The notes beneath the pieces are model-generated. The model had not been told where the DNA came from. It saw nothing but the letters and a program-made list of their open reading frames with translations, and did no database searches. Source: Kiritimatiellia bacterium (GTDB taxonomy: Bacteria > Verrucomicrobiota > Kiritimatiellia > UBA8416 > JABMPJ01). Taken from it: a stretch of 64,000 nt of DNA. Every line of letters starts with the position of its first letter. The first letter of the stretch is position 1. Below are positions 6,201-45,229 of the stretch, in pieces. Location of the stretch: assembly GCA_030745755.1 (NCBI GenBank), contig JASLOA010000004.1, forward strand, positions 3,462-67,461, given 5' to 3'. The position numbers and the translations under genes are program-made.

Positions 6201-6446
6201 GCAGACAGAACCATAGTAACCGGCAGAGGCAGGGCTAGCCAATGTGCGAGTCCTGTATATTGTCGGCACATTCCCGACTTCGACGGGGACAACCCGGACC
6301 CATAGCCATATCCTCACTCTGGAACGTGCAGTGACAGCACTGGCTCCATAATGTCGGAAATGTACCGTAAATCACGGAACTGACCCCCTTGTTGCATACA
6401 GCGGGACGCTGGTATATTTGAGTCTAACCCTAAGTTAGGAGTCATC
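6201..6446. promoter_or_regulatory. Divergent promoter module (complete copy) with two GTCGG-N7-CCGAC-type sites
   Basis: Sites at 6262-6278 (GTCGGCACATTCCCGAC) and 6353-6369 (GTCGGAAATGTACCGTA); leftward TTGGCT-18-TACTAT; segments recur at about 15.2, 21.6, 21.95, 26.7 and 45.1 kb. Confidence 0.75.
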
Positions 6447-7268
6447 ATGTTCATGCAAGTTCGCAGGCAAATCGGTGCGGTGGGAGTCACGTTGTATCTC
6501 ACCGCCATTCTGCTTTCGGTCGCGACGGCGCACGGAGCCGGGGAGCAAGCGGCAGCGGCGATATCGACGCCCACACACCATGCCGTCACAGCGGCACCCA
6601 GGATTGACGGGTGGTGGTTCGCTCTACAGGCCGAGAATATCGATCTGATGAAGAAGGGCGACATCGATCTGCTGATGGTGGGCGATTCGATCACGCACAA
6701 TTTTGCAAACGAAAAGGTTGGGCTGAAGGTGTGGGAGAAGCACTTCGTTCCGCTCAAGGCTATCAATCTCGGGGCTGGCGGCGATCGCACGCAGCACGTC
6801 TTGTGGCGTCTGAACCATCTGCCTGTCATGAAGCAGGCGCCCAAAGGCGCGGTCGTCCTGATAGGCACCAACAACATGGGCTGGGGTACCGATACACCGC
6901 AGCAGACCGGCGATGGCATCAAGGCTATTGTCATGAAACTCAAGGAGCTCTATCCCGACATGGACGTTCTTGTTCTCGGCGTGCTGCCCCGAAGGCGCAA
7001 GCTCGATCACCCACACCGCAAACGAATCATCGAACTCAATGCCCTCCTGCCGGACCTGCTCAAAGACATCAAGGGCGTGAAGTTCCTGAACATTGGCCCC
7101 GCGTTTCTCGATGAGGCCGGTTTCCTGTCGCCAGAGATGATGCCCGATGGCACACATCCCAGCGAGAAGGGTCACGAGATCTTGACCGCAGCCATCATGC
7201 CTGAGCTGGAGAGAATGCTCGCTCCAGATGGTGACGCGGCTCCGGGGGATGACGCCGTTAAGGAGTGA
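6447..7268 (+). CDS. Secreted GDSL/SGNH hydrolase (PAF-acetylhydrolase-Ib-like esterase)
   Basis: GDSIT, NLGAGGDRTQHVLWRL, IGTNN, DGTHP motifs; signal peptide. Confidence 0.92.
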   Translation: MFMQVRRQIGAVGVTLYLTAILLSVATAHGAGEQAAAAISTPTHHAVTAAPRIDGWWFALQAENIDLMKKGDIDLLMVGDSITHNFANEKVGLKVWEKHFVPLKAINLGAGGDRTQHVLWRLNHLPVMKQAPKGAVVLIGTNNMGWGTDTPQQTGDGIKAIVMKLKELYPDMDVLVLGVLPRRRKLDHPHRKRIIELNALLPDLLKDIKGVKFLNIGPAFLDEAGFLSPEMMPDGTHPSEKGHEILTAAIMPELERMLAPDGDAAPGDDAVKE

Positions 7269-7301
7269 TCCAGTTCCAGAAAAAGCCACCAAGGAGCATC
7301 C

Positions 7302-10300
7302 ATGCATAAGGCTGTGTTGACCGTTATCTCTTTGTTGGCGTGCCAGGCTGCGATCGCTGCGGGGTACGATTTCTACGCCAACACGGTGTACCCGGGCGCG
7401 AACCTGCGGCCGGATGTTGACCTGTACGAGGTCAAGAAGTCCGGGGGCGGCGATCCGCTGGCCTACGAAAGACGCGAGGTCGATTGGTGGCCACGCAAGG
7501 GCGTCGACATCATTGCGGTTAAGAAAGGGATGCCGCTGCGCACATGGACGTTGCGTGCCGGGCCTCTCAAGACAATCAGTGCCGGCGAAGTGAAGCCGGT
7601 GTTGGAGGAGATGGAGACGCTTGAGGCCAAGCAGAACTGTGGCGATCGCTTCTTCCGCAGGATCAGGGGCTACCTGTATCCGCCGGCAAGCGGCGAGTTC
7701 ACGTTTGTGTTTGCTGCCGACGATCAGGGCTCGTTGTTCCTGAGCACAGATGAGAAGCCGGAGAACAAGAAGCGGATAGCCTGGAACCCGGTTTGGGCGA
7801 AGCACAGACGATGGAACATGTTCCCCTCGCAGACCTCAGACAAGATCACGCTCGAGAAAGGTAAGCGTTACTACATAGAGGTCGTTCACCAGGAACAATC
7901 CTTCGGCGACCACGTGTCGGTCGGCTGGAAGGGCCCGAGCATTGACGCGATCACGATCATTGACGGCGAGTTTCTGTCAGGCCTCGACGGCAAGCGCGGC
8001 AAGATCGTGGCCGAGCGCAAGACGACGCCGGTGCTCGGTAAACGCCAGGCCTGGTCGGCTCCCGGGCAGTTCGAGGCCCACCTCATCGGCTTCCGTGGCA
8101 TGGGCAACACCATGACCAGCAAGTTTGGCGGCGGCGACGGCGGTCCGCGTGAGCCTGGCGTAGTCCTGCGCCTGCCGGACGGGCGTAAGCGTTTCTTCGG
8201 CACCGGCAGCTTTAGCGAGCAGGACAAGACCTACATCATGGACCTCTACGTGAAGGAAATGACGCGGATCAAGAAGGGCCTGGTCAAGAGGGAGTACATC
8301 AAGCGGCCGAACGCCAAGTTCCCGGACAGCGCCAAGCCCGGCGAGCCCGGCACGACGCACGTCGAGAGCGAGCATGTCGTGTGGATGTCCGGTAGTCAGG
8401 CGGGGAGCGACGACGATCCGTGGATGAATGAGTTGGAGCCGGAGAAAGCCCAGTGGTACCGCGATGGCTCGATCGAGTGCGCGGAGTACTTCTGGGCCCT
8501 GAACGAATATGCCGGCCACCTCATGCCGTTCTGGGACCATACGAAGCTTCACAAATACCAGATCACCGTGCCCGGCACGAAGCGCGACGGCTACCTGGTG
8601 ATTCCCGGCTATGCCGGCGGCGGCTATGGCGGCTGCGGCATCAAGGGCGCCGGCGGCGGTCCGTGGGCCGGCGCGCTGTTCCACGAATGGGGGCACGGTG
8701 CAAGGCCAGCCCCGCAAGGGATCGGCAGCGGCGAAGCCTTGGCCGATACGTACCAGACATTTCCCGATCCGGGCAACATGAAAGGCAACCACCACATCGC
8801 CCGGCCTTGGCGCAACGTGTTCAATGGCGATGGCGGCTATGGTTTTACCGTCTTCTACAACATGACCGGCGAGGATCCGAACTGGGGCTACGGCGGCTTC
8901 GCCGCGATGCCCTTTGGTGAAGCAGAATGCGTATTCATGACCATGGCGCGTACCGGCGAGCAGCGCGGGATGTTCAAGGACGGGATACGGGGATTCGGCG
9001 ACACGGTCGGCGAATACGGCGCGCGACTGACAACCTTCGACTGTGAGCTTGAAGATAGTTACCGCCGTACCTACTTCGCGCCTACACGCAACTGGCTCGA
9101 GACGGTCGACGCCGACAAGCGGATCTACCGCATCCCACTCGAGGAGGCATCCGAACCGTTCGGTATCAACATAACCCGGCTCGTGGCCGACGAGCAGGCA
9201 GGCAGGATCGTTGTGGACTTCAGCGGCTTGCACGATCCCGAGCTCTACAGTGACTGGCGCGCCTGCATCATTGCCGTTTCGGCGGACGGTACACGTCGCT
9301 ACTCCCCGATGTGGAGCAAGGGGAAGATGTCATTGCGCCTTGAGCCGGGCGATCTGTCGCACTGGCTCAGCGTTGCGGCGACACCGACCGCGCTCTATGC
9401 GGCCAAAAGCGGCGGACGTCGCGGCGGTGTGGATAAGAGGAAGCTATACAGTGGGCGCCATTCGTATCGCTATCCGTGGTCGGTTCAGTTGACCGGCGCG
9501 CGTCCGGGGTCCCCGCGTGAATGTCGCGCGGATATGGATGATGCCGATCTTCTCTACAAGGTGGTCGATTCGATACCGGCGCCCCATGACAAACCTGCTG
9601 GTGCGCGCCTGCTCAAGAAGCTCAAGGCCTTGCGTGCCGCCCTGGACGAAGAGCGGGACAAGCCCGGCCTGACGGACGCACAATCCTATACCGTCATGAA
9701 TGTGTATGGTGATGTTCAGACTGAGATCGACCGCATGAGCAAGGGCGCGCGTCATCCCAACGGCGGCGGCTGGGTGCAGGCTACGGCAACGGTGGCGCCG
9801 ACGGCTTATGTGGGCCCGAACGCCATGGTGCTGGATGGCGCTCACGTGTTGGACAACGCTATTATCGATGAGTTTGGTGTCGTAATGGGAACGGCCGTCG
9901 TGTCCGGCCACGCGAGAGTTTGCGGGCAGGGCGTGGTCAGAGACAAGGCGACGGTCGGCGGCTACTCACGTGTGTGGCAGACTCTCAAAGGGGAGGATGC
10001 TGCGAAGCTCATGCCCAAACGGCCCGGCGCAAAAGATGTCCATGAGTTTGGGTTGTGGGCCAACTACGCGATGGATCGGGGCGACAGCACAATACTTGAG
10101 GACTGGTACCGGTTCGCGTTTAGCGCCGACAGGGGTTACGCCGCAGACCTGACACCCGTGCTCAACGGTTATCTCTATGGGAAGCCGGAATTTGTGGCTG
10201 ATGGCGAGCATCTCGGATTCCGCTTTGATGGCAAGAGGCAACACGGCGAGCTTTGTCCGAGGGTGGCCGATCTTGGGGCCATCACGGTCAACATCTCACT

Positions 10301-12284
10301 CAAACCCGAGGGTAAGGGCGAACAGGCGATCTTTGATTTCGGATGTTCGGCGGACGACTGCCTCGTATTGAAGATAGCTGGCAACGGGAAACCTGAGCTG
10401 GTTGCGACTGTTGGTGGAGAGACGGTTTTGACGCTGGCCGGCAAGATGCCGCTCGCCACGGGCGCGTGGGCCAACCTGCGCGTTGAGATTGACGGCAAGA
10501 AGGCTGTGTTGTGGGTGGATGGCAAGAAGGCTAACGAGAAATCGACGACCTTCAGGCCGTGCGACGTGTTCCCGGGCGGAGGCGTGAAACGCAACACCAT
10601 CGCGGCAGCACGTGACGGCAAGCACCACTTCGCCGGTGTGCTGGATCAGGTGGTCATCTACCATGCCGTGCACGCAGACTATGCAGGACTTCCAGAGCCC
10701 ACCCTCGATTCACCCGTGCGCCCGACTCCGGATTACATTGCTGCGTTGGCAGAAAAGTACGGCAATCTGAAGGCTCTGAATGCCAAGGCCCGCGCAATGG
10801 AAGGGGAGCTGATGGCTCCGTACAGGGAAATGGAGAAGCAATCCAAGGCTCGCCAGCAGGAGATCATGGATCGCTCCCCTGAGTATGTTCAGGCGGTCGC
10901 TGATCAGAAGGCGGCAGAAGAGGCCCTTGAGCAGCGAAAGCGTGAATTGACCAAAGCGTTCGACAAGCTTCCTGAAAACATAGAAATGCAGAAGAAGATC
11001 AGCGATGCCCGCGCGAAGAATGATGCGCTGCGCAACAAGATCAATGCTCTTGAGCGCAAGGCCTTTGAGCCCGATGAGCAGCTGGTTGCGCTTAAGAAAC
11101 AGCGGGACGAAGCAGAGACGACGCGCCGAGCCGTTGAGCAGGAACTGAGGAAGGAATTCGACAAACGGCCAAAGACTGTTGAGGCGCGCGCCGAGATCGA
11201 TCCGCTGCGCAAGCAGGCGAACGCGTTGAGGTCAGAGGTGCAGAAGCTGGAGAAGGATGCAATGCAGGCAGACGAGGAGCTCCAGCAATTGCGCGCGAAG
11301 CGCGCCAAGTGTGAGGCCGATCGGGGCGCGCGTCAAAAGGTTCTGAGACCTGAGTTTGATGCCGGCGAGGATGCTGCGGAGTTGGCAGGTAAGGCTGATG
11401 ATGCGCGCGAACGGCGACACAACAACGAACTGACCAAGGAGGAGCGCGACAAGGCTGCGAGGGAAGAAGACGCCCTTCGCCGCAAGTGGAATGAGATGTG
11501 GCATGGCTTCTTGAGGGCCGACGCGACCTACAATGGGGCTGATCGAGCTCGGAGCGAATTGAACAGGCCGATCCACGAGCGGGAAACATCGGCTCGCGAA
11601 GGTGTCCGCAAGAACAGCGAGGTCGCGCGGAATTACGATAAACTGAACAACAAGGTGAGAGAGCTGGATGACCAACTGCGCAGGAAGTTCGATCTGGAGC
11701 TCAACAACAATGAGCGATATGCCGCAGCTCAGGCCAGTCGGATCCAGAGCGACCAGGCGATCCGCAATCGACAGGAGGACTTGCGTGCGGATCTGAGAGT
11801 ATCGGCGCCGATCTATCGTGAGCAGAAGAGGGCTGAGCAGCGGCTGCGCAATGCTGAGCAGGAACTACGCGGAACACGCGAGTTGGTTGTGGGCAAGGGC
11901 GCTGTCGACCTCGAGCGGAAGGTCGGCGAGACAAAGGGCGCAGTGGTCGAGGCGGAGAAGGTCGCGTGGAAGGCGTACGGCCCCGAGCGGGGGTGGCTCT
12001 ACAGCTTCAACAACCAGGGCTATCGAGGATACTACAATACGGCCTACAACCACTACCTTGGCGGTCACGCCAAGGCTATTGTTGGTGGCGGCGAGATGCG
12101 CGAGGACACCAACTTCCTTGAGGCATTGGCGAAGGCCGTCTCAGGCGATGATCCTGGCTGGCGTACCAAAGTTGACTGGGATTGGCGTGTGAGAGAGGAG
12201 ATCGATGGCAGCATCGCCGATGCGCCCCTGATGAGGAAATGGCTCGAACGCGTGCGCGGCCCGGTGATGATGGAGAAGCCATGA
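7302..12284 (+). CDS. Giant secreted DUF6055/Svx-AvrXca-like zincin: SHD1-like + PA14 + HEWGH + hexapeptide repeat + LamG + coiled coil
   Basis: Signal peptide; PA14 (IRGYLYPPASGEFTFVFAADD..LEKGKRYYIEV); HEWGH at 8682-8696; HPNGGGWV..VAPTAYVGPNAMVLD; LamG (IFDFG..LWVDG..FAGVLDQV); about 400-aa E/K/R/A-rich helix. Confidence 0.8.
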   Translation: MHKAVLTVISLLACQAAIAAGYDFYANTVYPGANLRPDVDLYEVKKSGGGDPLAYERREVDWWPRKGVDIIAVKKGMPLRTWTLRAGPLKTISAGEVKPVLEEMETLEAKQNCGDRFFRRIRGYLYPPASGEFTFVFAADDQGSLFLSTDEKPENKKRIAWNPVWAKHRRWNMFPSQTSDKITLEKGKRYYIEVVHQEQSFGDHVSVGWKGPSIDAITIIDGEFLSGLDGKRGKIVAERKTTPVLGKRQAWSAPGQFEAHLIGFRGMGNTMTSKFGGGDGGPREPGVVLRLPDGRKRFFGTGSFSEQDKTYIMDLYVKEMTRIKKGLVKREYIKRPNAKFPDSAKPGEPGTTHVESEHVVWMSGSQAGSDDDPWMNELEPEKAQWYRDGSIECAEYFWALNEYAGHLMPFWDHTKLHKYQITVPGTKRDGYLVIPGYAGGGYGGCGIKGAGGGPWAGALFHEWGHGARPAPQGIGSGEALADTYQTFPDPGNMKGNHHIARPWRNVFNGDGGYGFTVFYNMTGEDPNWGYGGFAAMPFGEAECVFMTMARTGEQRGMFKDGIRGFGDTVGEYGARLTTFDCELEDSYRRTYFAPTRNWLETVDADKRIYRIPLEEASEPFGINITRLVADEQAGRIVVDFSGLHDPELYSDWRACIIAVSADGTRRYSPMWSKGKMSLRLEPGDLSHWLSVAATPTALYAAKSGGRRGGVDKRKLYSGRHSYRYPWSVQLTGARPGSPRECRADMDDADLLYKVVDSIPAPHDKPAGARLLKKLKALRAALDEERDKPGLTDAQSYTVMNVYGDVQTEIDRMSKGARHPNGGGWVQATATVAPTAYVGPNAMVLDGAHVLDNAIIDEFGVVMGTAVVSGHARVCGQGVVRDKATVGGYSRVWQTLKGEDAAKLMPKRPGAKDVHEFGLWANYAMDRGDSTILEDWYRFAFSADRGYAADLTPVLNGYLYGKPEFVADGEHLGFRFDGKRQHGELCPRVADLGAITVNISLKPEGKGEQAIFDFGCSADDCLVLKIAGNGKPELVATVGGETVLTLAGKMPLATGAWANLRVEIDGKKAVLWVDGKKANEKSTTFRPCDVFPGGGVKRNTIAAARDGKHHFAGVLDQVVIYHAVHADYAGLPEPTLDSPVRPTPDYIAALAEKYGNLKALNAKARAMEGELMAPYREMEKQSKARQQEIMDRSPEYVQAVADQKAAEEALEQRKRELTKAFDKLPENIEMQKKISDARAKNDALRNKINALERKAFEPDEQLVALKKQRDEAETTRRAVEQELRKEFDKRPKTVEARAEIDPLRKQANALRSEVQKLEKDAMQADEELQQLRAKRAKCEADRGARQKVLRPEFDAGEDAAELAGKADDARERRHNNELTKEERDKAAREEDALRRKWNEMWHGFLRADATYNGADRARSELNRPIHERETSAREGVRKNSEVARNYDKLNNKVRELDDQLRRKFDLELNNNERYAAAQASRIQSDQAIRNRQEDLRADLRVSAPIYREQKRAEQRLRNAEQELRGTRELVVGKGAVDLERKVGETKGAVVEAEKVAWKAYGPERGWLYSFNNQGYRGYYNTAYNHYLGGHAKAIVGGGEMREDTNFLEALAKAVSGDDPGWRTKVDWDWRVREEIDGSIADAPLMRKWLERVRGPVMMEKP

Positions 12285-12303
12285 AAGAGTAGAAATGGGG
12301 AAT

Positions 12304-12389
12304 CGGTTAACGAGAACGGCGACGAGAACGGATTACGAGTAGGGACTCCCTCAATCGTCCACCATTCTCGTCGCCGCTCTCGTTCACCG
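12304..12389 (+). repeat. ~86-bp palindromic intergenic element, copy 1
   Basis: CGGTTAACGAGAACGGCGACGAGAACGGATTACGA...AATCGTCCACCATTCTCGTCGCCGCTCTCGTTCACCG. Confidence 0.85.
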
Positions 12390-12420
12390 CAGTCGACAGG
12401 CAAATGAGGGAAATAACACC

Positions 12421-13395
12421 ATGAAGGCACGAACAGCAAAAGCCGCATCGCTCGCGTTGCTTCTCGCATGCAGCACCGTGCGTGCCGATGACGCGGCGGG
12501 AATGAAGAGGCTGGCGGCAGGGGACTGGACGGTGCCGGGCATCGAGCTGGAGATGAAGCGGATACCGGCCGGCAGTTTCACGATGGGTAGTCCCAAGAGC
12601 GAAGCGCATCGGCGCGATGATGAGGTCCAGCACAGGGTCGAGATATCGAAGCCGTTCTACATGGGCGTCTACGAAGTTACCCAGGGCCAGTTCTACAAAC
12701 TGATGATGCCGAAGGATTACGACTACAAGGCGTGGCAGTACAAGCGCGGCCCTGTCGCCGACGGCGCAGCCTATCATTTTCGGCCGCGGCCCCATGGCAT
12801 CATGTTCAACGACAGCTCCGTGGGCGGCCCGGTGCAGTTGCAGTATCCCATGGAATGCATTAGCTGGGAACGGTCGCGTGAGTTCTGCCGGAAGCTCACG
12901 GAGACCGAGCGCAAGGCTGGACGCCTGCCGGAAGGCTATGTCTACAGGCTGCCTACCGAGGCGGAATGGGAATACGCCTGTCGTGCAGGCACCAAGGGTC
13001 CCTACAATGTTGATAGTGACCCTGCAAACATCAAGAGCTTGAAGAAGTTTGCGTTCTATGGCGGCAACAACTGGTGGCAGACGCGTACCAGTAAGTGCGG
13101 CGACCATCGCCTGCCCAATGCGTGGGGTTTATACGACATGCATGGCAATGTGTACGAGTGGTGCCTTGACTGGTATGGCGCGTATCCTTCAGCCACCTCA
13201 CCGCAGGCGGACCCGACAGGTCCGGCGGAAGGCAAGGAGAAGGTCGTGCGTGGCGGGTGTTTCTACCTGGACGACGACAATGCACACATGTTCCTGCGTT
13301 CGGCGAGCCGCTATTCAGTGCCGCCGGACGTCGACTTCTACGGTATCGTCGGCATGCGCCTTGTGCTTGCGCCAGTTGTCGCGGGGGCAAACTGA
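12421..13395 (+). CDS. Secreted FGE-sulfatase/SUMF1-fold protein
   Basis: IPAGSFTMGSP, EVTQ, RLPTEAEWEYACRAG, PNAWGLYDMHGNVYEW, VVRGG, GMRLV. Confidence 0.92.
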   Translation: MKARTAKAASLALLLACSTVRADDAAGMKRLAAGDWTVPGIELEMKRIPAGSFTMGSPKSEAHRRDDEVQHRVEISKPFYMGVYEVTQGQFYKLMMPKDYDYKAWQYKRGPVADGAAYHFRPRPHGIMFNDSSVGGPVQLQYPMECISWERSREFCRKLTETERKAGRLPEGYVYRLPTEAEWEYACRAGTKGPYNVDSDPANIKSLKKFAFYGGNNWWQTRTSKCGDHRLPNAWGLYDMHGNVYEWCLDWYGAYPSATSPQADPTGPAEGKEKVVRGGCFYLDDDNAHMFLRSASRYSVPPDVDFYGIVGMRLVLAPVVAGAN

Positions 13396-13688
13396 AAATA
13401 TCAAGTCTAGTGCAGTCGCGCACACGTCACCGACCCTCGCGCCAATATCGCGGAGGATCTGATCTCCCTGATCGAGGGCCGCATCGTAGGCCACCAACGC
13501 GAGCGCGCCGAAGCTTCTGCGTGAACGCCGGAGGGCCCTGTTGAGATGCCGGATGAGGATCTCACAGGTACAGTTCTTCAGTCACTATCGTTGAGAGCTC
13601 AACAGGGGTAAATGCTCCTCCAAGCATGTGGGGAGGCCGGCAGGCCAAGCCGCCGGTGAAGGGGGCGTGTGACATGGACGCTGGAAGG

Positions 13689-14993
13689 TCAGAGGAGCCA
13701 CTTCCAGGCTGGGATTGCGGCTATCTGAGTGCCGTCGTACTCCAGAGTCTTCTCTTCGTTCCGGGTAACGACGACGGCTTCCGGGATTCCAAAGAACCGG
13801 ACGGCGGCGGCCAATGGGGCGACTTCTCGCTCCACGGTTTCCGGTGACGACAGGTCGCTGCAGACCTGGACGGCGAGGGCCGGGTTGCCCCGATTGTCCA
13901 CGGCAATGAAGTCGACTTCCTGGCGTTTCGACCGCGTCAGATAGTAGTACAGACGGTCAAAAGAACGCCTCAGGTGCAGATAGACCAAGTTCTCCAAGGC
14001 TCTTGCGAACGAACCATCCCACACGTTGCTGTTTCGAACTGCCAGCGCCCAGTCGATACAGTAGACCTTCTTGTAGTTGCGCTCCTGTTCCTTCTGCGAA
14101 TGTGAGTAGATCGGTACCGAGCACATCAACCAGGCATCCTCTGCCCAGCGCAAGTAGTCCCGAACCGAATCGCGACTCGTCGCATGTCCGGCTTGCTTCA
14201 GATGGACATAGGCGCTCTGGAGCGTGTGCGGCTTGGCAATATTGGACAGCAGATGCCGATAGAGCTGCGTGCAGTGCATCGGCTTGCTGACGTTATACCG
14301 TTGAATCACATCGCGCAGGATCATGGTGTCAAAATACTCGCGCAGCAGCGCCTCGCGAAGGGGCTCATCAGCCAACACCACGGCGGGATACGCACCCCAT
14401 GCCAGGTAGGCATCGAACAGGCGAGCGGCCTCTGCTTGACCCTTGGTTGATGCCGGTGAATGCTTGAAGCCGCGGAAATTGAGAAACTCCTTGAACGAGA
14501 GCGGATAGACCGTGGAGGAGACGGACTTTCCTCGCAGCTCGGTGGCAATCTCATCCCGCAACAGCTTCGATGATGACCCGGTGACAATCACCTTCCAGTT
14601 CGGGTTGCGGGAGAGGTCAATCACATAGGACTCCCACCCTTGGATCTTATGGATCTCGTCCAGGACAAAGACCGCGGGTGTCTTTAGATCACACTCCGGC
14701 GTGGCTTCCAGGAAGACGCTCTGAATCTGCCGCAGTTCTGAGGCCTCGAGTGCTCCCAGAATCGGGTTGTCGAAATCGACAGGACAAACATGGCGAGTGT
14801 CAGGAAGGGCGCCTTGGGCAATCAAGTCGTCGGCCACTTGAAGTGAGCGGAAGCTCTTGCCCGCCCGACGGGCGCCGACAATCGTCGACACCATGCGGTC
14901 CGCGAGATGCACGGGCGCTTCGCGTGGAACGTACTCAGGTATGCCAAGCTCCCTGAAGTCCGCGATCTTGCGATGTATCTCTTCCTTGATCAT
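13689..14993 (-). CDS. AAA_14 ATPase with DUF4143 (wHTH/PD-(D/E)xK-like) C-terminus
   Basis: GARRAGKS Walker A, LDEIH, VTGSSSKLL..ELRG, YPLSFKEF, KKVYCID, ENLVY, EVDFI..AVQVC. Confidence 0.9.
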   Translation of the reverse strand: MIKEEIHRKIADFRELGIPEYVPREAPVHLADRMVSTIVGARRAGKSFRSLQVADDLIAQGALPDTRHVCPVDFDNPILGALEASELRQIQSVFLEATPECDLKTPAVFVLDEIHKIQGWESYVIDLSRNPNWKVIVTGSSSKLLRDEIATELRGKSVSSTVYPLSFKEFLNFRGFKHSPASTKGQAEAARLFDAYLAWGAYPAVVLADEPLREALLREYFDTMILRDVIQRYNVSKPMHCTQLYRHLLSNIAKPHTLQSAYVHLKQAGHATSRDSVRDYLRWAEDAWLMCSVPIYSHSQKEQERNYKKVYCIDWALAVRNSNVWDGSFARALENLVYLHLRRSFDRLYYYLTRSKRQEVDFIAVDNRGNPALAVQVCSDLSSPETVEREVAPLAAAVRFFGIPEAVVVTRNEEKTLEYDGTQIAAIPAWKWLL

Positions 14994-15186
14994 GGCGCCT
15001 TTCCTTATTTGCGGCGTATAATAAGTCGGTACATGCTGGGTTGCGGCTATATATTAGTCGCAACGTGGCGCCGTTGTCAACCGGAGAGCGTGGCGAAAAC
15101 GCGCGAGCCCTTTTTTCTTGCTATCAGGAACTATTCATCTTCTCTCCCCGGGGACGGGTCGGGAGGCGGCGTTATCACGCATCGTG

Positions 15187-15375
15187 TCGGAATGTCGCCA
15201 ACTGGTGAGCGAACGGGTCCCCTATGGGCTTGCCCTGCGCCTCGGTGAAGCTCTGGCTCGTTGGTTCTAATTTCCATGATGTCGGGAATGTACCGTTAAT
15301 CACGGAGCTGACCCCCTTGTTGCATGCAGCGGGATGGAGCTATCGTTTGCTTCTAATCCTAAGTGAGGAGTCACT
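15187..15375 (+). promoter_or_regulatory. Partial copy of promoter module (rightward half)
   Basis: 15279-15378 matches 6351-6449; 15197-15256 matches 45121-45181; site GTCGGGAATGTACCGTT at 15281-15297. Confidence 0.75.
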
Positions 15376-15684
15376 ATGGTCATGCGAGTTCGCAGGCAAA
15401 TCGGTGCTGTGGGAGTCACGCTGCATCTCACCGCCATGCTGCCTTCGGTCGCGACGACGGACGGAGCCGGGCAGCAAGCGGCAGCGACGATATCGACACC
15501 AACACCCCACGCCGTCACACCGGCACCCAGGATTGACGGGTGGTGGTTCGCTCTACAGGCCGAAAGCATCGACCTGATGAAGAAGGGCCGCGAGATCTTG
15601 ACTGAAGCCATCATGCCTGAGCAGAAGAGAATGCTCGGAACAGATGGTGACGCGGCTTCGGGCGATGGCGACGTTCAGGAGTGA
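15376..15684 (+). pseudogene. Internally deleted copy of GDSL esterase 6447..7268
   Basis: N-terminal ~70 aa and C-terminal ~30 aa match the GDSL gene; 513 bp (171 aa) removed in frame between AGAAGGG repeats (6652-6658 / 7165-7171 in the parent); 273-171=102 aa. Confidence 0.9.
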
Positions 15685-15717
15685 TCGAATTCCAGAAGCA
15701 TCCACCACGGAGAATCC

Positions 15718-15819
15718 ATGCATAAGGCTGTGTTGATCGTTATCTCTCTGTTGGCGTGCCAGGCTGCGATCGCGGCGGATTATGATTTCTACGCCAACAC
15801 GATGTACCCGGGAGCGTAG
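15718..15819 (+). pseudogene. 5' stub of DUF6055 giant gene 7302..12284
   Basis: MHKAVLIVISLLACQAAIAADYDFYANTMYPGA* vs parent MHKAVLTVISLLACQAAIAAGYDFYANTVYPGA. Confidence 0.9.
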
Positions 15820-15834
15820 GGCAAGAGGGGGTCG

Positions 15835-15949
15835 ATATTCTGCATTGGCCCAGACAGGCACTGAAGCGTGCCATCGACGGTGCATAGGGAGAGAGCGCCG
15901 CGTGCGGCAACAAGACCATCGAATATGGGCGGCGAGGGAAGGGCGTGCG
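15835..15949 (-). pseudogene. 3' stub of PQQ propeller gene 3148..6183
   Basis: HALPSPPIFDGLVAARGALSLCTVDGTLQCLSGPM vs parent HALASPPVFDGLAAARGALYLCTVDGTLLCLSGPM (30/35 identical by hand count). Confidence 0.9.
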
Positions 15950-15951
15950 GG

Positions 15952-18900
15952 TCACCGCCCAGCCCTGCCGTCGCCTGCCCCCTGTGCCGCCCGCTCAAGC
16001 TCTGCGGCCGTGCGCGGATAGTCATAGGCCTTCAGGTCAGCGATAGCACCTTTGAACATGTACTTCGCGCCTTCCGTGGGGTTCAGCATGCCTCCGATGG
16101 TCATCGGGTAGCCGCCGATGGTGTCCATTGTGGCAAAGTCGCTCTTCCCATCCAGTTTGCCATCGCGGTACACGCGCACCTCGGTCCGCGCGCCGCCGTC
16201 GTAGACCCATGCCAGGTGCGTCCACTTGCCTGTCACATCGCGATTGGTGTTCCAGGCGACTCCGGCTCGGCTCGGCTTCACGAGTGCCTTCCTCTGCCTT
16301 CCGCCGAATCCGAGCGATACATGGCGCCGCGCGACTTCCTTGTTCATTGCGAATAGCCTGGCGTCACCGTCCTCGTCGCAATAGGCCCACATCTCGATGG
16401 TGAACGGATGGTCGTCGGTCAGCCCTTTGGGCAACGTGATGTCAGACTGAAGCATCGCCTTGCCGTTGAACACAACGGCCTTGCGCCCGCCAAGCGTCTT
16501 CACTTCCGCGCTGCGATCGATATCAACCGACATCCCGAACTGGCCGTTCAGCTTGCCGGTGTTCTCAATACGCCCAATCGCCTCACCATCCCTGGCATTT
16601 CCGACGTTGATGGCCACCTGCAGGTTCCGCGTGGCAGCGCTCTCGCCGGCCGTGAGCTTCTTGATGTCGCCAGCGCTCAACGCCTTGTCGAAGATGCGTA
16701 GCTCACGCAAGATGCCGTACTCCCCCGCATCACCAATGGTGAGCCTGCCCGCACGCGCAATACCGTAATCCACCTTCTCCTCTCGGAGCAAACGGCCGTC
16801 CCGGTAGAGCTTCGCTATGCCATTCTCATACGTAACGGCAAACTTCATCCACTGGCATACCAGTCCCGCATTGCCGATTGGGTAGTTGAACGACTTCTCT
16901 CCGCGTCCTCTATTCCCTTGCTTTCCCCATTCTAGGCAGGGGCGGCCGGACGCGCCGGACAACACAATACCTGTGCTATCGGGTGCCTCGCCCCACGACA
17001 CAATCCGTTGTTCGGCGGCGCCGTATCTGCTGCCGAAATCATAGTAGATGGTGAACGGACCGTTCGTCAGGCAATCCGGCGCAGCGAACGAAGATTCAAG
17101 CCTCAGGCCCTTTGCGAGCTGGACGCCGGTCCGTCCCCGGAACTCCTGGGCCGTCAGCGCAAACGTGGTACCAAGCGTCGCCGGCACGAATGTGCCGCCA
17201 GCCTTGCCCCTGTTATTCCATGCGGCAAGCTTACCGTCGGACAGCTGATCGGCCTCCAAGTCCAGGATGACACCTTCACGGGTAGTGAAAGACCACAGTG
17301 GGCCATTGCCTGCACGCCAGTAGTAGACCTTGCCCGGTGCCAGCTCAGGCCTGAACTCGCCGGGCGCGAACACTCCCACAGGCTTTACTGCATTCGGTGC
17401 ATCGCCAAGATAGACCTGCTCCTTGTCACCACCAGCTAATCCTTTGCCCCAGCTCAAAGCCGGACGCCGACTCGCAACCGCCATACCACGATCTGCCGGC
17501 ACCGGCTTGTGCGGCACGGCGATGAAATCATTCCTGCTGTTCTCGGCCAGTTGCTCGGCAGTCAGCGCAAGCTGATGCACGCGCAGCACGGCTATCGCGC
17601 CATTGAATGACTTGCGCCAGTTCCAGCGCTGTCTGTCATAGTGCCCGCCGAGATGCAGGTAGTCACCATCGTCGGCCCACAACACGCCATCCTGCTCGCC
17701 CACCTTCTGGCCGTTGCGGTAGATCTCGGTCTTGCCCGAGACCCGTGCCGAGTCGGTCATCCGCTTGCCCTTCTTCGCCTCACCCTTGAAGACCATGGCC
17801 ATATGCTGCCACCCCGGCTGCAGGTGCGCCGCGCCGAGCTGGAAGCTCTTGCCCCACTCGAGGACGACCTCGTCACTCGACTGAGCGTCAGAGTAGACCC
17901 AGGCTTCGAGCGTCCCGCTGACCGGACCTTCAGCAGCGGCACTGCCCTTGGCATCGATCACGCCGATCATCCTGTCCATACCGTCGAAGTATGGCGCCGG
18001 TATGCCTGCGACGTCCTGGAACTTGGGCGCACTGCCGGAATAGTGCCAGAAGCTGTGGATATCGTTGTGAATCCGGCCCTGCAGCGTGCCGTGGTTGGCA
18101 GCGCTCCGTAGCCACGGCTTGTTCATGCGTTTTGAGTAGAGCGGACGATGATACTCGGCGCCAACTTCACTGAGGAACCGCGTGTCGATGTCGACATAGA
18201 GCTTCCCACCCACATGCGGGGGAACGCGCCGCTGGTAGAAGGCGAGTTCGTCCGCAAAATGGTTTTCCACCTGCTCGTGATCGATGTCGTAGTTGTAGGC
18301 GCGGACATGCGCGACTGCGCCTTTGAAGCCGCCGACAACCTGCCCGTCGGTAACACCGCCGCCAACGAACATGCGCACGTTAGGCTTCAGCGCCAGCTTG
18401 TGCTTGGCGCGCTGGATCTCCTTCCCATCAACGTAGATCAGGAACTTACCTTCGGTATCATCCAACCCGCCGCTCTCGAACACCCAGGCCACGTGATGCC
18501 AGCCGTCAGCAAGCGCAACGCCAGATACCTCACCGGAAATCCCCGCGTTGAGCTGGTAGGCAATCGTATTGGGTCCCACTTTGAGCCGGGCGCCCTCTGA
18601 GTCCGGCCCCCAACCGAGAATAGTCTGTGTGCCATCAGCTTCCGGACCGCAGTTGACCCACAGTTCGACCGACCACTCGCGGTTGTCCTGGAAGCCCTGC
18701 TTCGTGTCCAGGTTCCAGAGCATGGCATCATCGCCATCAAAGAGAACCGCCGTGACCCCGTCAATCGTCTCAAGGCTGGGGTCGCCGAGATTCTCGAATG
18801 CACCTGTGGACTCGGGATCTCTGACAGGGCGCGTGGTCCCGTCAGGCAGGTCCTGTATATTCACCAGGCCGCCGCGATTCTCCCAACGCGTCACGGTGTC

Positions 18901-21522: not shown

Positions 21523-21567
21523 GGCAATTCCTTCTTTCTTCAGGCGGAGGATTCAGGTGTCCAACTT

Positions 21568-21653
21568 GCAGACAGAACCATAGTAACCGGCAGAGGCAGG
21601 GCCGGCCAATGTGCGAGTCCTGTATATTGTCGGCACATTTCCGACCTCGACGG
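21568..21653 (-). promoter_or_regulatory. Copy of leftward promoter half
   Basis: Near-identical to 6201-6286; perfect GTCGG-CACATTT-CCGAC at 21629-21645; TTGGCC-18-TACTAT on the minus strand. Confidence 0.85.
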
Positions 21654-21888: not shown

Positions 21889-21951
21889 GAACACTTCGCC
21901 TCTCTGGTGAAATGTTCGGGCTAAGAGATATACCATCTGTAGAGTGCTGCG

Positions 21952-22049
21952 ATGTCGGAAATGTGACGTGAATCAACGGAACTGACCCCCTTGTTGAATA
22001 AGGCGGGACGATGATATAGTTCGAGTCTGACGAGAAGCGAGGAGTCACC
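21952..22049 (+). promoter_or_regulatory. Diverged copy of rightward promoter half
   Basis: Matches 6351-6446 (ATGTCGGAAATGT..ACGGAACTGACCCCCTTGTTG..GAGTCT..AGGAGTCA). Confidence 0.8.
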
Positions 22050-22208
22050 ATGTTCATGCAGGTTCACAGACAAATCGGCGCCGGCAGAGTCACGTTGTGT
22101 CTCGCGGCGGTTATCCTGTCGGTCGCAACGGCATTGTGCATATCCCCATGTTGCAAGCACCCCACCCCATCTATAGAATACGCCAATCAAGAATGTTCGC
22201 CAATATAG
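22050..22208 (+). pseudogene. 5' stub (signal peptide) of GDSL esterase
   Basis: MFMQVHRQIGAGRVTLCLAAVILSVATA vs parent MFMQVRRQIGAVGVTLYLTAILLSVATA; homology ends after about 28 codons. Confidence 0.85.
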
Positions 22209-22221
22209 GGAAATGTGAACG

Positions 22222-30179: not shown

Positions 30180-30292
30180 CGAGAGCGGCGACGAGAAAGG
30201 ATTACGATCCGCCTTCGCCCTGCGGGCTACGGCGCGACAGGGCAGAGATTTTCCCAATCGTCGACCATTCTCGTCGCCGCTATCGTCAACCG
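30173..30292 (+). repeat. ~86-bp palindromic element, copy 2, with nested 33-bp hairpin
   Basis: Arms as in copy 1; insert TCCGCCTTCGCCCTGCGGGCTACGGCGCGACAG at 30208-30240; the element supplies the TAA stop of the upstream gene. Confidence 0.85.
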
Positions 30293-30332
30293 ATCTAGGT
30301 GTTCTCTTAGACTAGGGGACAGGGCAGGGGAG

Positions 30333-30389: not shown

Positions 30390-30425
30390 ATGCGGATGGA
30401 CAGGTAAAAGAATGAAAACGGGAAA

Positions 30426-30546
30426 CGGTTGAGGAGAACGGCGACCCAGCCTTCGCGCTTCGCGGCTACGGCGGGCAGGCTGAGAGCGGATTACGAGGAG
30501 AGATTCTCTCAATCGTCCGCCATTCTCGTCGCCGCTATCGTCAACC
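30426..30546 (+). repeat. ~86-bp palindromic element, copy 3, with nested ~36-bp hairpin
   Basis: Insert CCAGCCTTCGCGCTTCGCGGCTACGGCGGGCAGGCT at 30446-30481 interrupts the left arm. Confidence 0.85.
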
Positions 30547-30609
30547 AAAATGGACAGGAAAATGGGGGAGAAGACAGATATGCCGCTACCCCCCACACAC
30601 ACAAAGCTA

Positions 30610-34886: not shown

Positions 34887-37169
34887 ATGAGTCTTGCGCA
34901 ACGTGATCCATCGTTTCGAGACCGGTTTCTGTCAGGCGATCAGCCGGACGGTGGCGTTGTGCTGTGGTGGCTGAATGGGACACTGACTCGAGAGAAAATA
35001 TATGAGCAGTTGTCCTATTTCAAACACGTGGACGGATTTGGCGGGATCGCGCCGCTGACGCTGTTCAGATTCCGGGGAAAAACCGAGCCGGAGTATTTGT
35101 CCGAGGGGTATTTTGAGTTCTATCAATACATTCTCGACACGGCCCGTGAGCTTGAATTGACGGTGGTCTTCTATGACGATTGCGATTTTCCGACCGGCTC
35201 GGCAGGGGGGAAGATCCGCGAGGAATGTCCGCAGCATTTGATGAAATACCTCTGCCGGAGAACCGCCCGAAACACGACCGAGCAGAAGGGGCTTTCTGAT
35301 TCGATTTCCATCGCGTTTGACGGGAAGTTGATGTCGGCTGTGGCTAGACGGGTGTCCGATAACTCGTATCATGTGGTGACTGACGCGCTGGAGTGCCAGC
35401 CCATCGCGACGGCAGAAGATCAGGTCGAGAGCTATCGCGCAATATGGCGATGTGGCGAAGGTGTCTTGCCGGCGGAGGAAAATCGGCGGTGGGAACTTCA
35501 GGTGTTCTCCGCGCCCATCACGAACAAGACGGGTTTGTGGCTGATCGATTTTCTGTCGCCGGAGGCTGTCGAAGCGATGTTGAGCGCGACCTATGAGCAG
35601 TTCTACCGCCGATTCGGCGAGCACTTTGGTACGACGATCAAGATGAGTTTCTTCGACGATCTCGCGGTGGCCGACGCGCCCGACAACGCGCTGTGGACGG
35701 ACGGGTTCAACGAGAAGTTCGAGGCCCGATATGGCTATGATCCGTCGACGTTGTATCCTGCGTTGTTTGAGGATATTGGCGAGTCGACGCGAGCGGCCCG
35801 GGCGCAGTTGCTGGACTTTCGCAATGACTTGTTTTCGCGGGGGTTCCCCAAGGTGGTTGAGGAATGGGCCCACACGCACGGGATCAAATGTTCGGGCCAT
35901 CCGGGGGGGAGCTATCGGGCGGCTCCGCTGGAAGCAGCCGGCGACGCGATCAAGTTCTACAAGCACCAAGGCTATCCGCTGACCGACTGCATCTGCTCGT
36001 TGGACAACGGGATGGATGGCTTCAAGATACCCGCGGCCGCTACGCACACATACGACAAATCTCTACTCGTATGCGAGACGTTTGGCGCGTTCCTGAATCG
36101 CGAGTGCGACCAGACGACGCCGTATCGAACAGCCATGCAGTTGTACACGCGAGGCGTGAACTATATGCTCCCGCACGGGGCGTGGTATGACATGGACAAT
36201 ATCAACATTTACCCCGAAGTTACGTCGCGTCACCCCGTGTTCGGTGATGAGGTCAAGCCCTTCAACACGTGGGTTTCGCGATGCGAGCCACTCTTGCGGG
36301 CAGGGCGGCACGTTGCAGACATCGCGGTCTATTACCCGATCGACGATCTGTGTTCGCGGTTCACGTTTGCTCCCGGTGCGGACGGCCGCGGGCGATTGCT
36401 CCCGCACGGCACGGATTACTATGAGGTCAACCGGATTCTCTTTGCGGAGCTTCGGCGAGATTTCACCTTCGTCCATCCGGAAGTCCTTATCGACAACACG
36501 ACGGTATCCGATGGCTGGCTTCATCTGAATAACCGCGTCAATCACGAGCATTGGAAGGTGCTGATTTTACCGACGTGCGAGACGATTCAGGTCGAGGCCT
36601 TGCGGAAGATCAAAGCCTTCCATGACGATGGCGGAATTGTGATCGCCACCGGTGCATTGCCGGCGTATTCGTTCGAGCTGGACTGCGATGTGGAAGTCCG
36701 GCAGTTGGCGGAGTCGATATTCGATCCGGCCTTGGGTGGCTGTGGGCGATTTGTTCCCTATGCCACGGAGGAGTCGTTGGCGGCGGAGTTGGATTCGTTG
36801 GATCATGTGTGGGATGTGCGTTGGTCGGACACGACCGAGCTCCCCAAGCGTGATGCCCAGTGGGAGTTGAAGGGGGTGCATGGCGATTGGTACCGCGGTG
36901 GGAATCGTCAGTTCACCTATATTCACCGCCACGTGGATCGGGCGGCGGGCCAGGCTGGAATGGAAGTATACTACTTCGCCAATTCGAGCGATGAGTCCGT
37001 CCGTAGCGAGATCACGCTACGCGGCGAGCATCGGCTGGAAGCGTGGGACCCCAAAACCGTACAGAGTCAACCGCTGCCCGTTGAGACCAGCGATGGCCAA
37101 ACACGATTCACCCTAACCCTCCCGCCAGTCAGTTCCCTATTCGTAGTCTCTCAGCCTGACGAAGAGTGA
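34887..37169 (+). CDS. Glycoside hydrolase family 106-like (alpha-L-rhamnosidase-like), no signal peptide
   Basis: WWLNGTLT, YLSEGYF, FYDDCDFPTGSAGG, DFLSPEAV..TYEQFY, CETFG, GVN..PHG, HVADIAVYYP, YFANS, EAWDP. Confidence 0.75.
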   Translation: MSLAQRDPSFRDRFLSGDQPDGGVVLWWLNGTLTREKIYEQLSYFKHVDGFGGIAPLTLFRFRGKTEPEYLSEGYFEFYQYILDTARELELTVVFYDDCDFPTGSAGGKIREECPQHLMKYLCRRTARNTTEQKGLSDSISIAFDGKLMSAVARRVSDNSYHVVTDALECQPIATAEDQVESYRAIWRCGEGVLPAEENRRWELQVFSAPITNKTGLWLIDFLSPEAVEAMLSATYEQFYRRFGEHFGTTIKMSFFDDLAVADAPDNALWTDGFNEKFEARYGYDPSTLYPALFEDIGESTRAARAQLLDFRNDLFSRGFPKVVEEWAHTHGIKCSGHPGGSYRAAPLEAAGDAIKFYKHQGYPLTDCICSLDNGMDGFKIPAAATHTYDKSLLVCETFGAFLNRECDQTTPYRTAMQLYTRGVNYMLPHGAWYDMDNINIYPEVTSRHPVFGDEVKPFNTWVSRCEPLLRAGRHVADIAVYYPIDDLCSRFTFAPGADGRGRLLPHGTDYYEVNRILFAELRRDFTFVHPEVLIDNTTVSDGWLHLNNRVNHEHWKVLILPTCETIQVEALRKIKAFHDDGGIVIATGALPAYSFELDCDVEVRQLAESIFDPALGGCGRFVPYATEESLAAELDSLDHVWDVRWSDTTELPKRDAQWELKGVHGDWYRGGNRQFTYIHRHVDRAAGQAGMEVYYFANSSDESVRSEITLRGEHRLEAWDPKTVQSQPLPVETSDGQTRFTLTLPPVSSLFVVSQPDEE

Positions 37170-38797: not shown

Positions 38798-38884
38798 CGG
38801 TGGACGATAGCGGGCGACGAGAGCGGTGGACGATGAGACGCTCTCCACTCGTTACCCGCTCTCGTCGCCCGCCATCGTCAACCC
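38798..38884 (-). repeat. ~86-bp palindromic element, copy 4 (minus orientation)
   Basis: Reverse complement GGTTGACGATGGCGGGCGACGAGAGCGGGTAACGA...ATCGTCCACCGCTCTCGTCGCCCGCTATCGTCCACCG. Confidence 0.8.
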
Positions 38885-44484: not shown

Positions 44485-44738
44485 GAGGGTCTCCATAGGG
44501 GTGTCCGATTCTCGAACACGAGCTCGTACGTACCATAGCGTCCAGTCGGCATCGTTGGGGCTCAGGGCCAGACCCAGGCTTAGCACTTTGCTAGCAACCT
44601 CTCTCACCGCTCCTACGTACATCGCGTTATCCTTCTGCCTCTGTAATCAGCTTGGCCTTTACTGCAGTCTCACCCCATCACCCATCAAGGCCGCGAAAGA
44701 CCTGCACCGGACCAGTTAATGTTCTGCGACCCCATGAC

Positions 44739-44990
44739 CTATGGACTGCACCGTAACACCAGACGCTTGGCCGCTTTGGCCCATTGCGTCAGCCGTTCTG
44801 GATGTTCGTGGCATGTGGCGATTTCGTGGTGGATCACTTCGACATGGCAGCCTTTGGATTTCTCCAGGATGTCCTCGAGATATACCATGTCCTGCGCCAC
44901 ATCCCACCCCGGTCGTGATATCGATGCAGCACTGGGTTTGATCGAGTAGATGTAGCCGGTACCAATTGCTTCCGCCGCGACGGCGACTCT
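44739..44990 (-). pseudogene. C-terminal remnant of a conserved hypothetical (UroD-like barrel family)
   Basis: AEAIGTGYIYSIKPSAA..WD..LEDILEKSKGCHVEVIHHEIATCHEHPERLTQWAKAA*; in-frame stop upstream and no start codon. Confidence 0.5.
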
Positions 44991-45075
44991 CTCAAGCGGA
45001 TTCTGTGTCGTTTTTCATACCACCAAAGCTTTACGCATCGATAGCCTTGCGATCAAGAGTACGCTTCCGTAGAAA

Positions 45076-45229
45076 ACAGGGACATTTCCGATGCTCAGGT
45101 GAGAGCATGCGTATGGCGGTGCCAACTGGTGAGCGAATGGGGTCCCATATGGGCTTGCCCTGCGCCTCGATGAAGCCCTGGGACGTGCAGCAACAGCACG
45201 GGGCTACAGGAAGTCGGAAATGACACCCT
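45076..45229. promoter_or_regulatory. Diverged relative of the divergent promoter module
   Basis: Site on minus strand 45076-45092 (ATCGGAAATGTCCCTGT) and on plus strand from 45213 (GTCGGAAATGAC); 45177-45222 aligns with 6317-6362; 45121-45181 aligns with 15197-15256. Confidence 0.7.

Follow-up and report, generated by a model that had tools for sequence, protein, structure and literature searches.

Predicted divergent promoters recurring in a Kiritimatiellia glycan-gene region: a lineage-specific family and a predicted activator-tuned regulon

Introduction

Why does nearly the same intergenic DNA stand before quite different genes in one stretch of a bacterial genome? The question is raised by a 64,000-nucleotide stretch (the window) of a Kiritimatiellia bacterium, positions 3462-67461 of contig C4 in assembly GCA_030745755.1 (G000 below), in which a divergent module at 6201-6446 recurs, in halves or parts, in other intergenic regions. 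An earlier reading of the letters, which we call the original prediction, had described the module as a promoter/operator cassette reused in five such regions, carrying a 17-bp palindromic operator and forming a local regulon assembled by copying. From the analysis described below, we consider it probable that the module is a pair of divergent promoters of one lineage-specific family, and that this family serves a predicted, activator-tuned glycan-utilisation regulon. The original inference was largely right in spirit, and its interpretation is partly supported.

To our knowledge, almost nothing has been described of promoters or regulons in Lentisphaeria/Victivallales, uncultured marine glycan degraders, and our search for literature on Victivallales promoters or regulons showed nothing relevant among the papers listed. 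G000 comprises 3.07 Mb in 63 contigs (92% complete, 60% G+C). The comparison set consisted of 64 genomes of the order, all metagenome-assembled genomes: G001-G005 are congeners of G000 (G002-G005 together represent 12.8 Mb of searched sequence) and 58 come from other genera. By Pfam matches, the window encodes LamG/PA14/DUF6055 giants, an FGE-sulfatase, a GH106 protein, a fucosidase and a DUF4159-MoxR-BatA cluster.

Copies of the module in the window

A repeat search of the window matched 6201-6286 to 21568-21653 (95% over 86 nt) and 6239-6326, in inverted orientation, to 26725-26812 (94% over 88 nt); the right half of the module, from 6349 on, recurred at 15277 and 21950. A 34-nt core was common to 6349, 15277, 21950 and 26769. 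The right-half copies extended into coding sequence (6417-6659 matched 15346-15588, 89%), and the window copies were 82-95% identical to each other. BLAST of the five intergenic regions against the whole assembly returned the same copies and added two that lie elsewhere in the assembly, C4:103959-104122 and C19:11925-11999. For the 'middle part' (45177-45222), alignment with 6318-6362 gave 19/22 plus 10/10 bases in register. We designate left-type copies L, right-type copies R and the diverged member at 45213 M1, and number positions from the first G of GTCGG (m1).

With up to two mismatches, the 17-mer GTCGGRAATGTRCCGAC occurred at 6262 (minus), 6353 (plus), 15281 (plus) and 21629 (minus), four times against 0.08 expected; none of 100 shuffled sequences reached four. 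The sites at 21954, 26773, 45213 and 45076 retain the first arm and spacer only (TCGGAAATG...). A family profile, with hits counted at E <= 0.01, recovered exactly these eight sites in the window, the weakest being 45052-45091 on the minus strand. The motif sites and all repeat copies named in the original prediction were thus found where it had placed them. Its 17-bp palindrome, on the other hand, is not the conserved unit: it is perfect in two copies only, and the bare pattern GTCGG-N7-CCGAC with at most one mismatch stood at chance level in the window (6 against 4.1 expected; 18 of 100 shuffles reached 6).

Among ten right-type copies, mean pairwise identity was 0.85 in the motif and 0.77 from -35 to -10, as against 0.31 at -60..-21, 0.44 at -20..-1 and 0.41 in the 5' untranslated region (5'UTR). 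The motif was therefore better conserved than its neighbouring bases, and the repeats appeared as promoter-sized blocks with sharp ends, both in line with the original prediction. In the orthologous GDSL pair R1/R9, the motif kept 27/32 positions and the core 21/36.

Anatomy of a family member

The conserved unit is about 66 bp long. Its upstream element, of about 26-31 bp, reads AA-GTCGG-R-A-W-T-G-T-n-CCG-nn-AAT-n-TACGG and is followed, 32 nt after GTCGG, by TTGnnn, a spacer of 17-18 nt and TAnnnT. Position counts were taken from an alignment of 22 non-redundant members. GTCGG at m1-5 was present in 21, 22, 22, 22 and 22 of the 22, preceded by A at m-1 (18/22) and m0 (16/22) and followed by A at m7 (22/22), G at m10 (18/22) and T at m11 (19/22). 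The second arm survives only as CCG at m13-15 (16, 20 and 17 of 22); its last two positions are unconserved and a full CCGAC stands in 2/22, so the alignment does not fit an operator with both arms conserved. Downstream come A, A, T at m18-20 (17, 17 and 22) and T, A, C, G, G at m22-26 (18, 16, 16, 17 and 21), then two C residues ahead of the -35 (18/22 and 21/22), the TTG (22, 21 and 22) and, after 17-18 unconserved bases, the T, A and final T of the -10 (21 each). The CGG/CCG triplets at m3-5, m13-15 and m24-26 and the CCC at m34-36 lie one helical turn apart, and an A/T-rich stretch follows each triplet.

Left and right types share sequence over about the first 31 nt only; both have TTG at 37-39 and TAnnnT at 61-66 from the G of GTCGG, as does the diverged copy at 45213. 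In the orthologous promoter of G001, GTCGG, AT-TAC-G, TTG and TA occupy identical positions and most of the remaining bases have changed. Since the diverged members have only the motif, TTG and TAnnnT in common, the motif looks like more than passenger sequence. The three left-type copies diverge from each other at the same base (...TCTGTCTGC), about 5 nt past the predicted transcription start.

Predicted promoter identity

For comparison with strong promoters of the same organism, 49 tRNA genes were examined. TTG-N19-21-TAnnnT was found at -43 to -52 of 19 of them, mostly as TTGACa-17-TAnnnT, which we take as the putative housekeeping promoter of the G000 organism. The family has the same -10, a -35 reduced to TTG and a spacer one base longer (18 nt). 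Across the 22 members, TTGnnn, 17-18 nt and TAnnnT recur as in the organism's own strong promoters; the family thus looks like sigma70-type promoters with a degenerate -35. A weak -35 with a longer spacer is the usual look of promoters that need help. Transcription commonly starts about 7 nt after the -10; with such a start, the upstream element would span about -72 to -47, a position typical of activator sites. The original prediction had placed its operator like an activator site just upstream of sigma70-like pairs, and the distance between motif and TTG/TAnnnT, fixed in 22/22 members, fits that placement.

Two other promoter classes were considered. Sigma54 promoters have GG and GC 10 nt apart (-24/-12); by eye in the alignment, the nearest upstream GG lies 12 nt from TTGC, and right-type copies read TTGT or TTGA, so this class was rejected. 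The Bacteroidetes-type -7 box (TAnnTTTG) was not enriched upstream of genes (20 sites on the sense and 19 on the antisense strand, compared with 33 for the reversed control).

We infer promoter activity, and activation rather than repression, from these sequence features. In the mechanism we propose, the housekeeping RNA polymerase would use the -10 and the weak -35. Its activity there would require, or be modulated by, a protein that binds specifically at about -72 to -47 and is most likely an activator; the outcome would be co-regulation of a glycan-utilisation regulon.

Distribution and targets of the family

A profile built from 17 copies brought up additional members in G000 and G001 that had diverged much further, and an nhmmer search of the genome gave a concordant result. 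A genome-wide motif scan had been suggested along with the original prediction; our second profile (profile R2), run over the 64 genomes, gave 19 hits in G000 on 6 contigs (12 on C4, 8 of them in the window), 16 in G001, 14 in G048, 12 in G051, 4 in G030 and single weak hits in two genomes. There was no hit in the other 57 of the 64, including the congeners G002-G005. For 14 of the 19 G000 hits, the end falls -33 to +102 nt from an open reading frame (ORF) of >=100 aa on the same strand; two lie within 320 nt of one (R3/ABC cassette and L3/SASA gene), another sits at the end of a contig, and the last two have only remnants in front of them. With 19 members on 6 contigs, and with older, diverged members orthologously conserved in a congener, the idea of a 'local' regulon made only by copying had to be given up.

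The genes behind these promoters encode GDSL and SASA esterases, GH127, GH4, a GH106 operon, a GH63-like protein and the DUF6055/LamG/PA14 giants, and further an FGGY kinase, FGE-sulfatase, sulfatase, BNR, SBP_bac_5 and PepP proteins; judged by their domains, nearly all have predicted functions in glycan utilisation. The promoter stands in both G000 and G001 ahead of GH4, FGGY kinase, GH127, PepP, GDSL and DUF4159-MoxR genes. That the window's downstream genes are unrelated, as originally claimed, held for the PQQ propeller, the LamG giant and the SASA/FGE protein, which differ in Pfam content; two of the five 'genes', however, are remnants (15376-15684 and the ORF at 22050).

G030, G048 and G051 are classed in other families. 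Their best motif loci were 86-98% identical to G000 contigs and the others 65-81% or unmatched; the MoxR protein of G051 was 96% identical in amino acids to that of the window, whereas the value for its congener G050 was only 52%. Because of these identities, we treated the loci as G000-like contigs, mis-binned or transferred, and they are not counted as deep cross-family conservation. The high-identity contigs in these bins were G051:C98, G051:C103, G030:C68/C399 and G048:C490; the PQQ gene there was 88% identical at the nucleotide level. In a tetranucleotide principal component analysis, the contigs of G000 formed a continuum, with C4 and C30 at the low-GC end and C48 at the other.

Candidate regulators

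According to the original prediction, no regulator gene lies in the window. One ORF there, 1220-2263 (minus, 347 aa), has weak similarity to a winged helix of the TrmB type (21 bits, the cut-off being 25.6). It is 76% identical to a protein of G001, was not found in G002-G005, and at 8/8 loci is paired with an overlapping 227-aa ORF (2232-2915, minus) with sub-threshold nucleotidyltransferase matches (AbiEii, E 0.012; DUF6036, E 0.007). As a regulator of the family, the 347-aa ORF was rejected: it occurs in 16/64 genomes without tracking the motif, and always in this pair. Probably the pair at 1220-2915 belongs to an undescribed family of toxin-antitoxin or defence-like modules. The claim thus needs the qualification of a weak winged-helix match, and otherwise stands in that the ORF reads as one half of such a pair rather than as a regulator. 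Twenty small ORFs on C4 and C19 showed no DNA-binding domain.

Two AraC-type genes are associated with family promoters. A cupin-AraC gene at C30:5605-6438 is flanked by two of them (region C30:5465-6863), which precede an FGGY sugar kinase (3776-5383, minus) and a GH4 glycosidase (6885-8492). It is a candidate regulator, but it has no ortholog in G001 (best match 31%, partial), and the corresponding contig ends carry none either; it probably adds a second, local level of control. A family promoter stands ahead of a PAS-AraC gene on G051:C103, which has homologs at 61-64% in G000 (C7:25062-25775), G001 and G030. No homolog was found at E <= 1e-40 in G002-G004, and the G000 copy has no upstream motif. 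We regard PAS-AraC as a candidate regulator, and as a lead only.

Origin of the copies

The right-type copies considered here are those at 6353, 15281, 21954, C4:103973 and C19:11931. Four of them run through the 5'UTR into a signal peptide, MFMxVRRQIGAVGVTL..., with the first 28-71 codons in common. At 6447 this signal peptide heads a 273-aa GDSL esterase and at C4:104069 a LamG protein of 2127 aa that is unrelated to it; their 87% identity is confined to aa 1-31 (6447-6539 versus C4:104069-104161). The same promoter, 5'UTR and 31-aa signal peptide on two unrelated mature proteins amounts to a secretion leader shuffled with its promoter. The fifth, which precedes pepP on C19, shares no more than a block of some 66 nt, as do the G001 copies ahead of pepP and a DUF6785 gene and one metagenome contig.

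The stretch 15277-15949, which begins with R2, is a mosaic that combines segments of 6349-6659, 7165-7400 and 3143-3257; within it, 15376-15684 is an internally deleted GDSL gene (blastp; repeat families D3, D4 and D8). The ORF behind R3 (ATG 22050) has 52 codons, of which the first 28 match the shared signal peptide; intact genes resume with the ABC/FtsX cassette at 22222-25213. The left-type block L1 ends 18 nt before the ATG at 6183 of the PQQ-propeller gene. The weakest member faces a short minus-strand ORF starting at 45018, which we read as a probable gene remnant, possibly URO-D-like; the part of it at 44751-44955 is 92% identical to C4:128809-129013.

The spacing of the module halves also varies: 75 nt at 6.2 kb, 309 nt at 21.6 kb with an inverted repeat resembling a MITE (miniature inverted-repeat transposable element) between them, and about 1.17 kb on a contig of the G051 bin with a Y1-transposase fragment between. 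The MITE-like imperfect inverted repeat lies at 21718-21888 (GGAATGACGAAACACCCAAG...), between the promoters of the second module, and related pieces occur on C38, C45, C3 and C27.

A contig 96% identical to 45317-46956 (the DUF4159 gene) is without the 45213 promoter M1, the break lying about 30 nt past the predicted start. Contigs from four DNA sequencing runs showed the region in independent assemblies; they break at the repeats. An opposite-strand joint in the run contigs, 6326 to 26099, proved to be merely the L3 copy. The ABC/FtsX cassette (22416-25238) is an indel polymorphism: in contigs of runs X3, X4 and X6, 22415 is followed immediately by 25239. This form has depths of 21, 21 and 14 and the cassette 13.8, 13.7 and about 4-6; the joint shows no microhomology.

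Judged from these arrangements, the copies are best read as products of segmental duplication and recombination in a plastic island, not of transposition of a delimited element. The eight window members appear to be mostly young copies, the left type cut near the predicted start and the right type copied with its 5'UTR and signal peptide. Table 1 lists the promoter copies of the window and their genes.

Table 1. Promoter copies in the window and the genes behind them (window coordinates unless a contig is named)
Feature	Position	Strand	Details
L1 promoter block	6201..6286	-	motif 6278->6253; -35 TTGGCT 6242->6237; 18-nt spacer; -10 TACTAT 6218->6213
L1 profile match	C4:9670-9743	-	E 2.5e-11
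L1 target	3148..6183	-	1011-aa PQQ/BamB-like beta-propeller protein (Pfam PF13360, 7e-33)
R1 promoter block and 5'UTR	6348..6446	+	motif 6353-6377; -35 TTGTTG 6389-6394; 18-nt spacer; -10 TATATT 6413-6418; ATG 6447
R1 profile match	C4:9811-9882	+	E 8.6e-12
R1 targets	6447..12284	+	GDSL esterase 6447-7268, then 1660-aa PA14/DUF6055/LamG protein 7302-12284 (Pfam)
R2 promoter copy	15277..15350	+	motif 15281-15305; TTG 15317-15319; TATCGT 15341-15346; E 3.4e-9
Decayed copy behind R2	15376..15949	+	GDSL gene with internal deletion (aa 1-71 joined to 240-273), then pieces matching 7165-7400 and 3143-3257
L2 promoter copy	21568..21653	-	motif 21645->21620; TTG 21609->21607; TACTAT 21585->21580; E 1.2e-10
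L2 target	15952-21522	-	1856-aa LamG giant (Pfam)
R3 promoter copy (with ORF)	21950..22208	+	motif 21954-21979; TTG 21991-21993; TATAGT 22015-22020; E 2.6e-9
L3 promoter copy, inverted relative to L1	26725..26849	+	motif 26773-26798; TTG 26809-26811; TACAAT 26832-26837; repeat I1, 94%; E 5.4e-9
L3 targets		+	5'UTR of about 310 nt; SASA/FGE-sulfatase 27156-30179; DUF6055/LamG 30550-34854; GH106 34887-37169 (Pfam)
M1, diverged member	45208..45285	+	motif 45213-45238; TTGGTG 45249-45254; TATACT 45273-45278; E 2.5e-9
M1 target			DUF4159-MoxR-DUF58-BatA operon; likely true start codon ATG 45368
Weakest member (site 45076)	45052..45091	-	profile E 0.0034; nhmmer E 0.016

Discussion

Several other readings of the repeats were weighed against that of an activator-tuned promoter family. 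The copies could be pure duplication debris in a plastic glycan island, the motif having no shared regulatory role. The mosaic built from three pieces of 3143-7400, the two copies that head gene remnants, the signal peptide shared by R1-R4 and R8, the bimodal scores of a 24-nt weight matrix (eight sites at >=34 bits, then 22.9 and 21.2; control maximum 17.5) and the population polymorphism of the ABC cassette beside R3 all agree with such an origin. We nevertheless think it unlikely as the whole explanation: in G001 and on five other contigs there are diverged members whose likeness is limited to the motif, TTG and TAnnnT at fixed spacing, the PepP and DUF6785 copies have a 66-nt block in common between unrelated flanks, and left and right types carry the same motif at the same distance from unrelated cores. 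A small mobile element (MITE- or REP-like, for repetitive extragenic palindromic), or a structured RNA or leader, is very improbable. REP-like hairpins, the MITE-like repeat at 21718-21888 and IS200/Y1-type transposase genes do adjoin several copies, and the two motifs in 6201-6446 are mutually inverted; yet conservation runs outward from these motifs to the genes rather than inward, and the inverted motifs therefore do not delimit an element. The members, moreover, point toward a nearby gene start. Neither terminal inverted repeats nor target-site duplications were seen at the copy ends, which coincide with promoter boundaries, the only empty-site comparison being the M1-less contig. Rfam gave no match at gathering score in the window, and the consensus fold was weak (-7.95 kcal/mol), none of its 14 predicted pairs covarying.

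Other alternatives concern what acts at the upstream element. Promoters of ECF (extracytoplasmic function) sigma factors show a -35 of GGAAC/T, about 16-18 nt and a -10 of CGT/GTT. The element might itself be such a promoter (-35 GGAAT, 17 nt, -10 GTT), with TTG/TAnnnT belonging to the leader or to another promoter. GGAAT-N17-GTT, which we take to recall the SigR/SigH-type consensus, is indeed found in about half of the diverged members, the G at m26 is kept in 21/22, and G000 has three ECF-sized sigma genes. We hold this reading improbable all the same, since T stands in only 12/22 at each of two positions of the would-be -10, the left and right cassette copies of the window read GAA or GGA and none reads GTT, and the invariant TTG and the 21/22 TAnnnT would be left unexplained; the three ECF-like sigma factors, besides, have 71-88% orthologs in congeners that lack the family (one only 43% in G002). 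UP elements occupy a position overlapping that of the motif, and A/T-rich tracts recur every 10-11 bp or so between -70 and -45 (AAAT at m6-9 and m17-20). A curved or UP-like element contacted by the polymerase alpha subunits could thus give constitutive high expression with no further factor. We give this little credence, as the best-kept bases are G/C (GTCGG 21-22/22, C14 20/22, G26 21/22) and not the A/T tracts, and the element was not seen in the tRNA promoters examined. A further reading concerns the spread of the family. It would be a portable expression and secretion cassette (an activator-dependent promoter with optional 5'UTR and signal peptide), recombined before new glycan genes and moving between Victivallales genomes as a horizontally shared accessory regulon; the patchy presence at 65-98% nucleotide identity in bins of three families would then reflect transfer and not mis-binning. 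This we regard as doubtful.

A number of observations weigh against an activator-tuned regulon of one organism. None of the OmpR-type (4) and AraC-type (21) genes of the genome is on C4 or C19; on the contigs holding most sites, there is no OmpR, AraC or sigma-family gene besides the AraC gene on C30, and none of these regulators is tied to the motif. An E. coli-tuned sigma70 scanner found no pair in the module at 9/12, TTGGCT-18-TACTAT scoring 8/12. A repressor, an anti-activator or a nucleoid protein could also use this site, or it could work as phased A-tract or UP-like DNA free of any specific factor. Many members arose by recent duplication, and shared ancestry accounts for part of their conservation. 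Among the 20 sequencing runs listed, there is no RNA run on record that holds this DNA. The spread is patchy: among the congeners, the motif family and its target genes are shared with G001 only, whereas three sigma proteins of G000 are closer to those of G003/G005 (87-88%, 79-82% and 86-88%) than to those of G001 (74%, 77% and 81%). This discrepancy points to an accessory gene pool or to imperfect binning; the bins may mix organisms, and 'one genome, one regulon' is not fully secure.

The arrangement is related to known ones. Activator-dependent sigma70 promoters of the AraC/XylS, RhaS and PhoB/OmpR type have tandem sites abutting the -35. The family shares with them a weak -35, a spacer that is not optimal and, in fixed phase, a site of about 30 bp that reaches from about -72 to the -35, its half-sites lying 1-2 helical turns apart. 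We know of no textbook box of these regulator families made of CGG/CCG/CGG half-sites on alternating strands; the geometry resembles AraC/XylS- or OmpR/PhoB-type sites, and we make no assignment to a regulator family.

Putative mobile promoters (PMPs) are upstream sequences that precede non-homologous genes in one genome and are shared with other genomes, with >=80% identity over >=50 nt within -150 to -50 of the start codon and adjacent coding sequences that are not paralogous (Nijveen, Matus-Garcia and van Passel 2012, PMC3575422). L1 and L2 (PQQ protein versus LamG giant) are 95% identical over 86 nt, at -18 to -103 and -46 to -131 of the starts at 6183 and 21522, with over 50 nt of each between -150 and -50; L1 and L2, like L1 and L3, precede genes of different Pfam content, and their similarity ends before the start codons. 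These pairs thus behave as PMPs. The right-type copies R1-R4 do not, for they share a signal peptide, a case barred by the design of the PMP screen (PMC3575422). Unlike PMPs, too, the copies studied here sit in a wider, diverged family with a defined motif, -35 and -10. The motif-level rationale and the signal-peptide variant are additions to the PMP concept. Correia elements, ERIC and REPIN have been named as promoter-bearing miniature mobile elements (PMC3575422); our repeats resemble them as intergenic DNA that supplies predicted promoters to neighbours, but no terminal inverted repeats or target-site duplications were seen at their ends, which coincide with functional boundaries.

No new kind of mechanism is revealed, and the case is a clear, not unprecedented, one of promoter reuse. 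The family provides a putative housekeeping consensus (TTGACa-17-TAnnnT), a defined cis-element and a predicted regulon of about 15-20 operons, and exemplifies how a regulon may grow by copying of a promoter, sometimes with a signal peptide, before new genes. Its short DNA element could also serve as bait for the regulator, and its operons for co-expression checks in metatranscriptomes.

Other repeats in the window and the genome

TCGGAAT was in excess upstream of genes, with 57 sense and 50 antisense sites against 7 for the control. As a signal of the promoter family this was rejected, as it comes largely from other palindromic repeat families; much of it is due to an abundant palindromic repeat, GGACCGGTTCGGAATACCGAACCGCTAAGG..., found genome-wide (for example at C8:54661, C18:18654 and C37:58832) and unrelated to the promoters. 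REP-like hairpins with arms of about 35 nt (GGTTRACGAGAACGGCGACGAGAACGG...) lie just 3' of genes at 12297-12389, 30166-30295, 30414-30547, 38799-38883, 59824-59892 and 61640-61732. These may be terminators or REP elements, separate from the promoter family. Transposase genes of the IS200/Y1 type are present at 25391-26521 and C4:608-1654, and a tandem array of 7-nt units (AAGCAGT / GATCAGT / AATCAGT) occupies 54831-54894, between a gene ending at 54839 and one starting at 54941.

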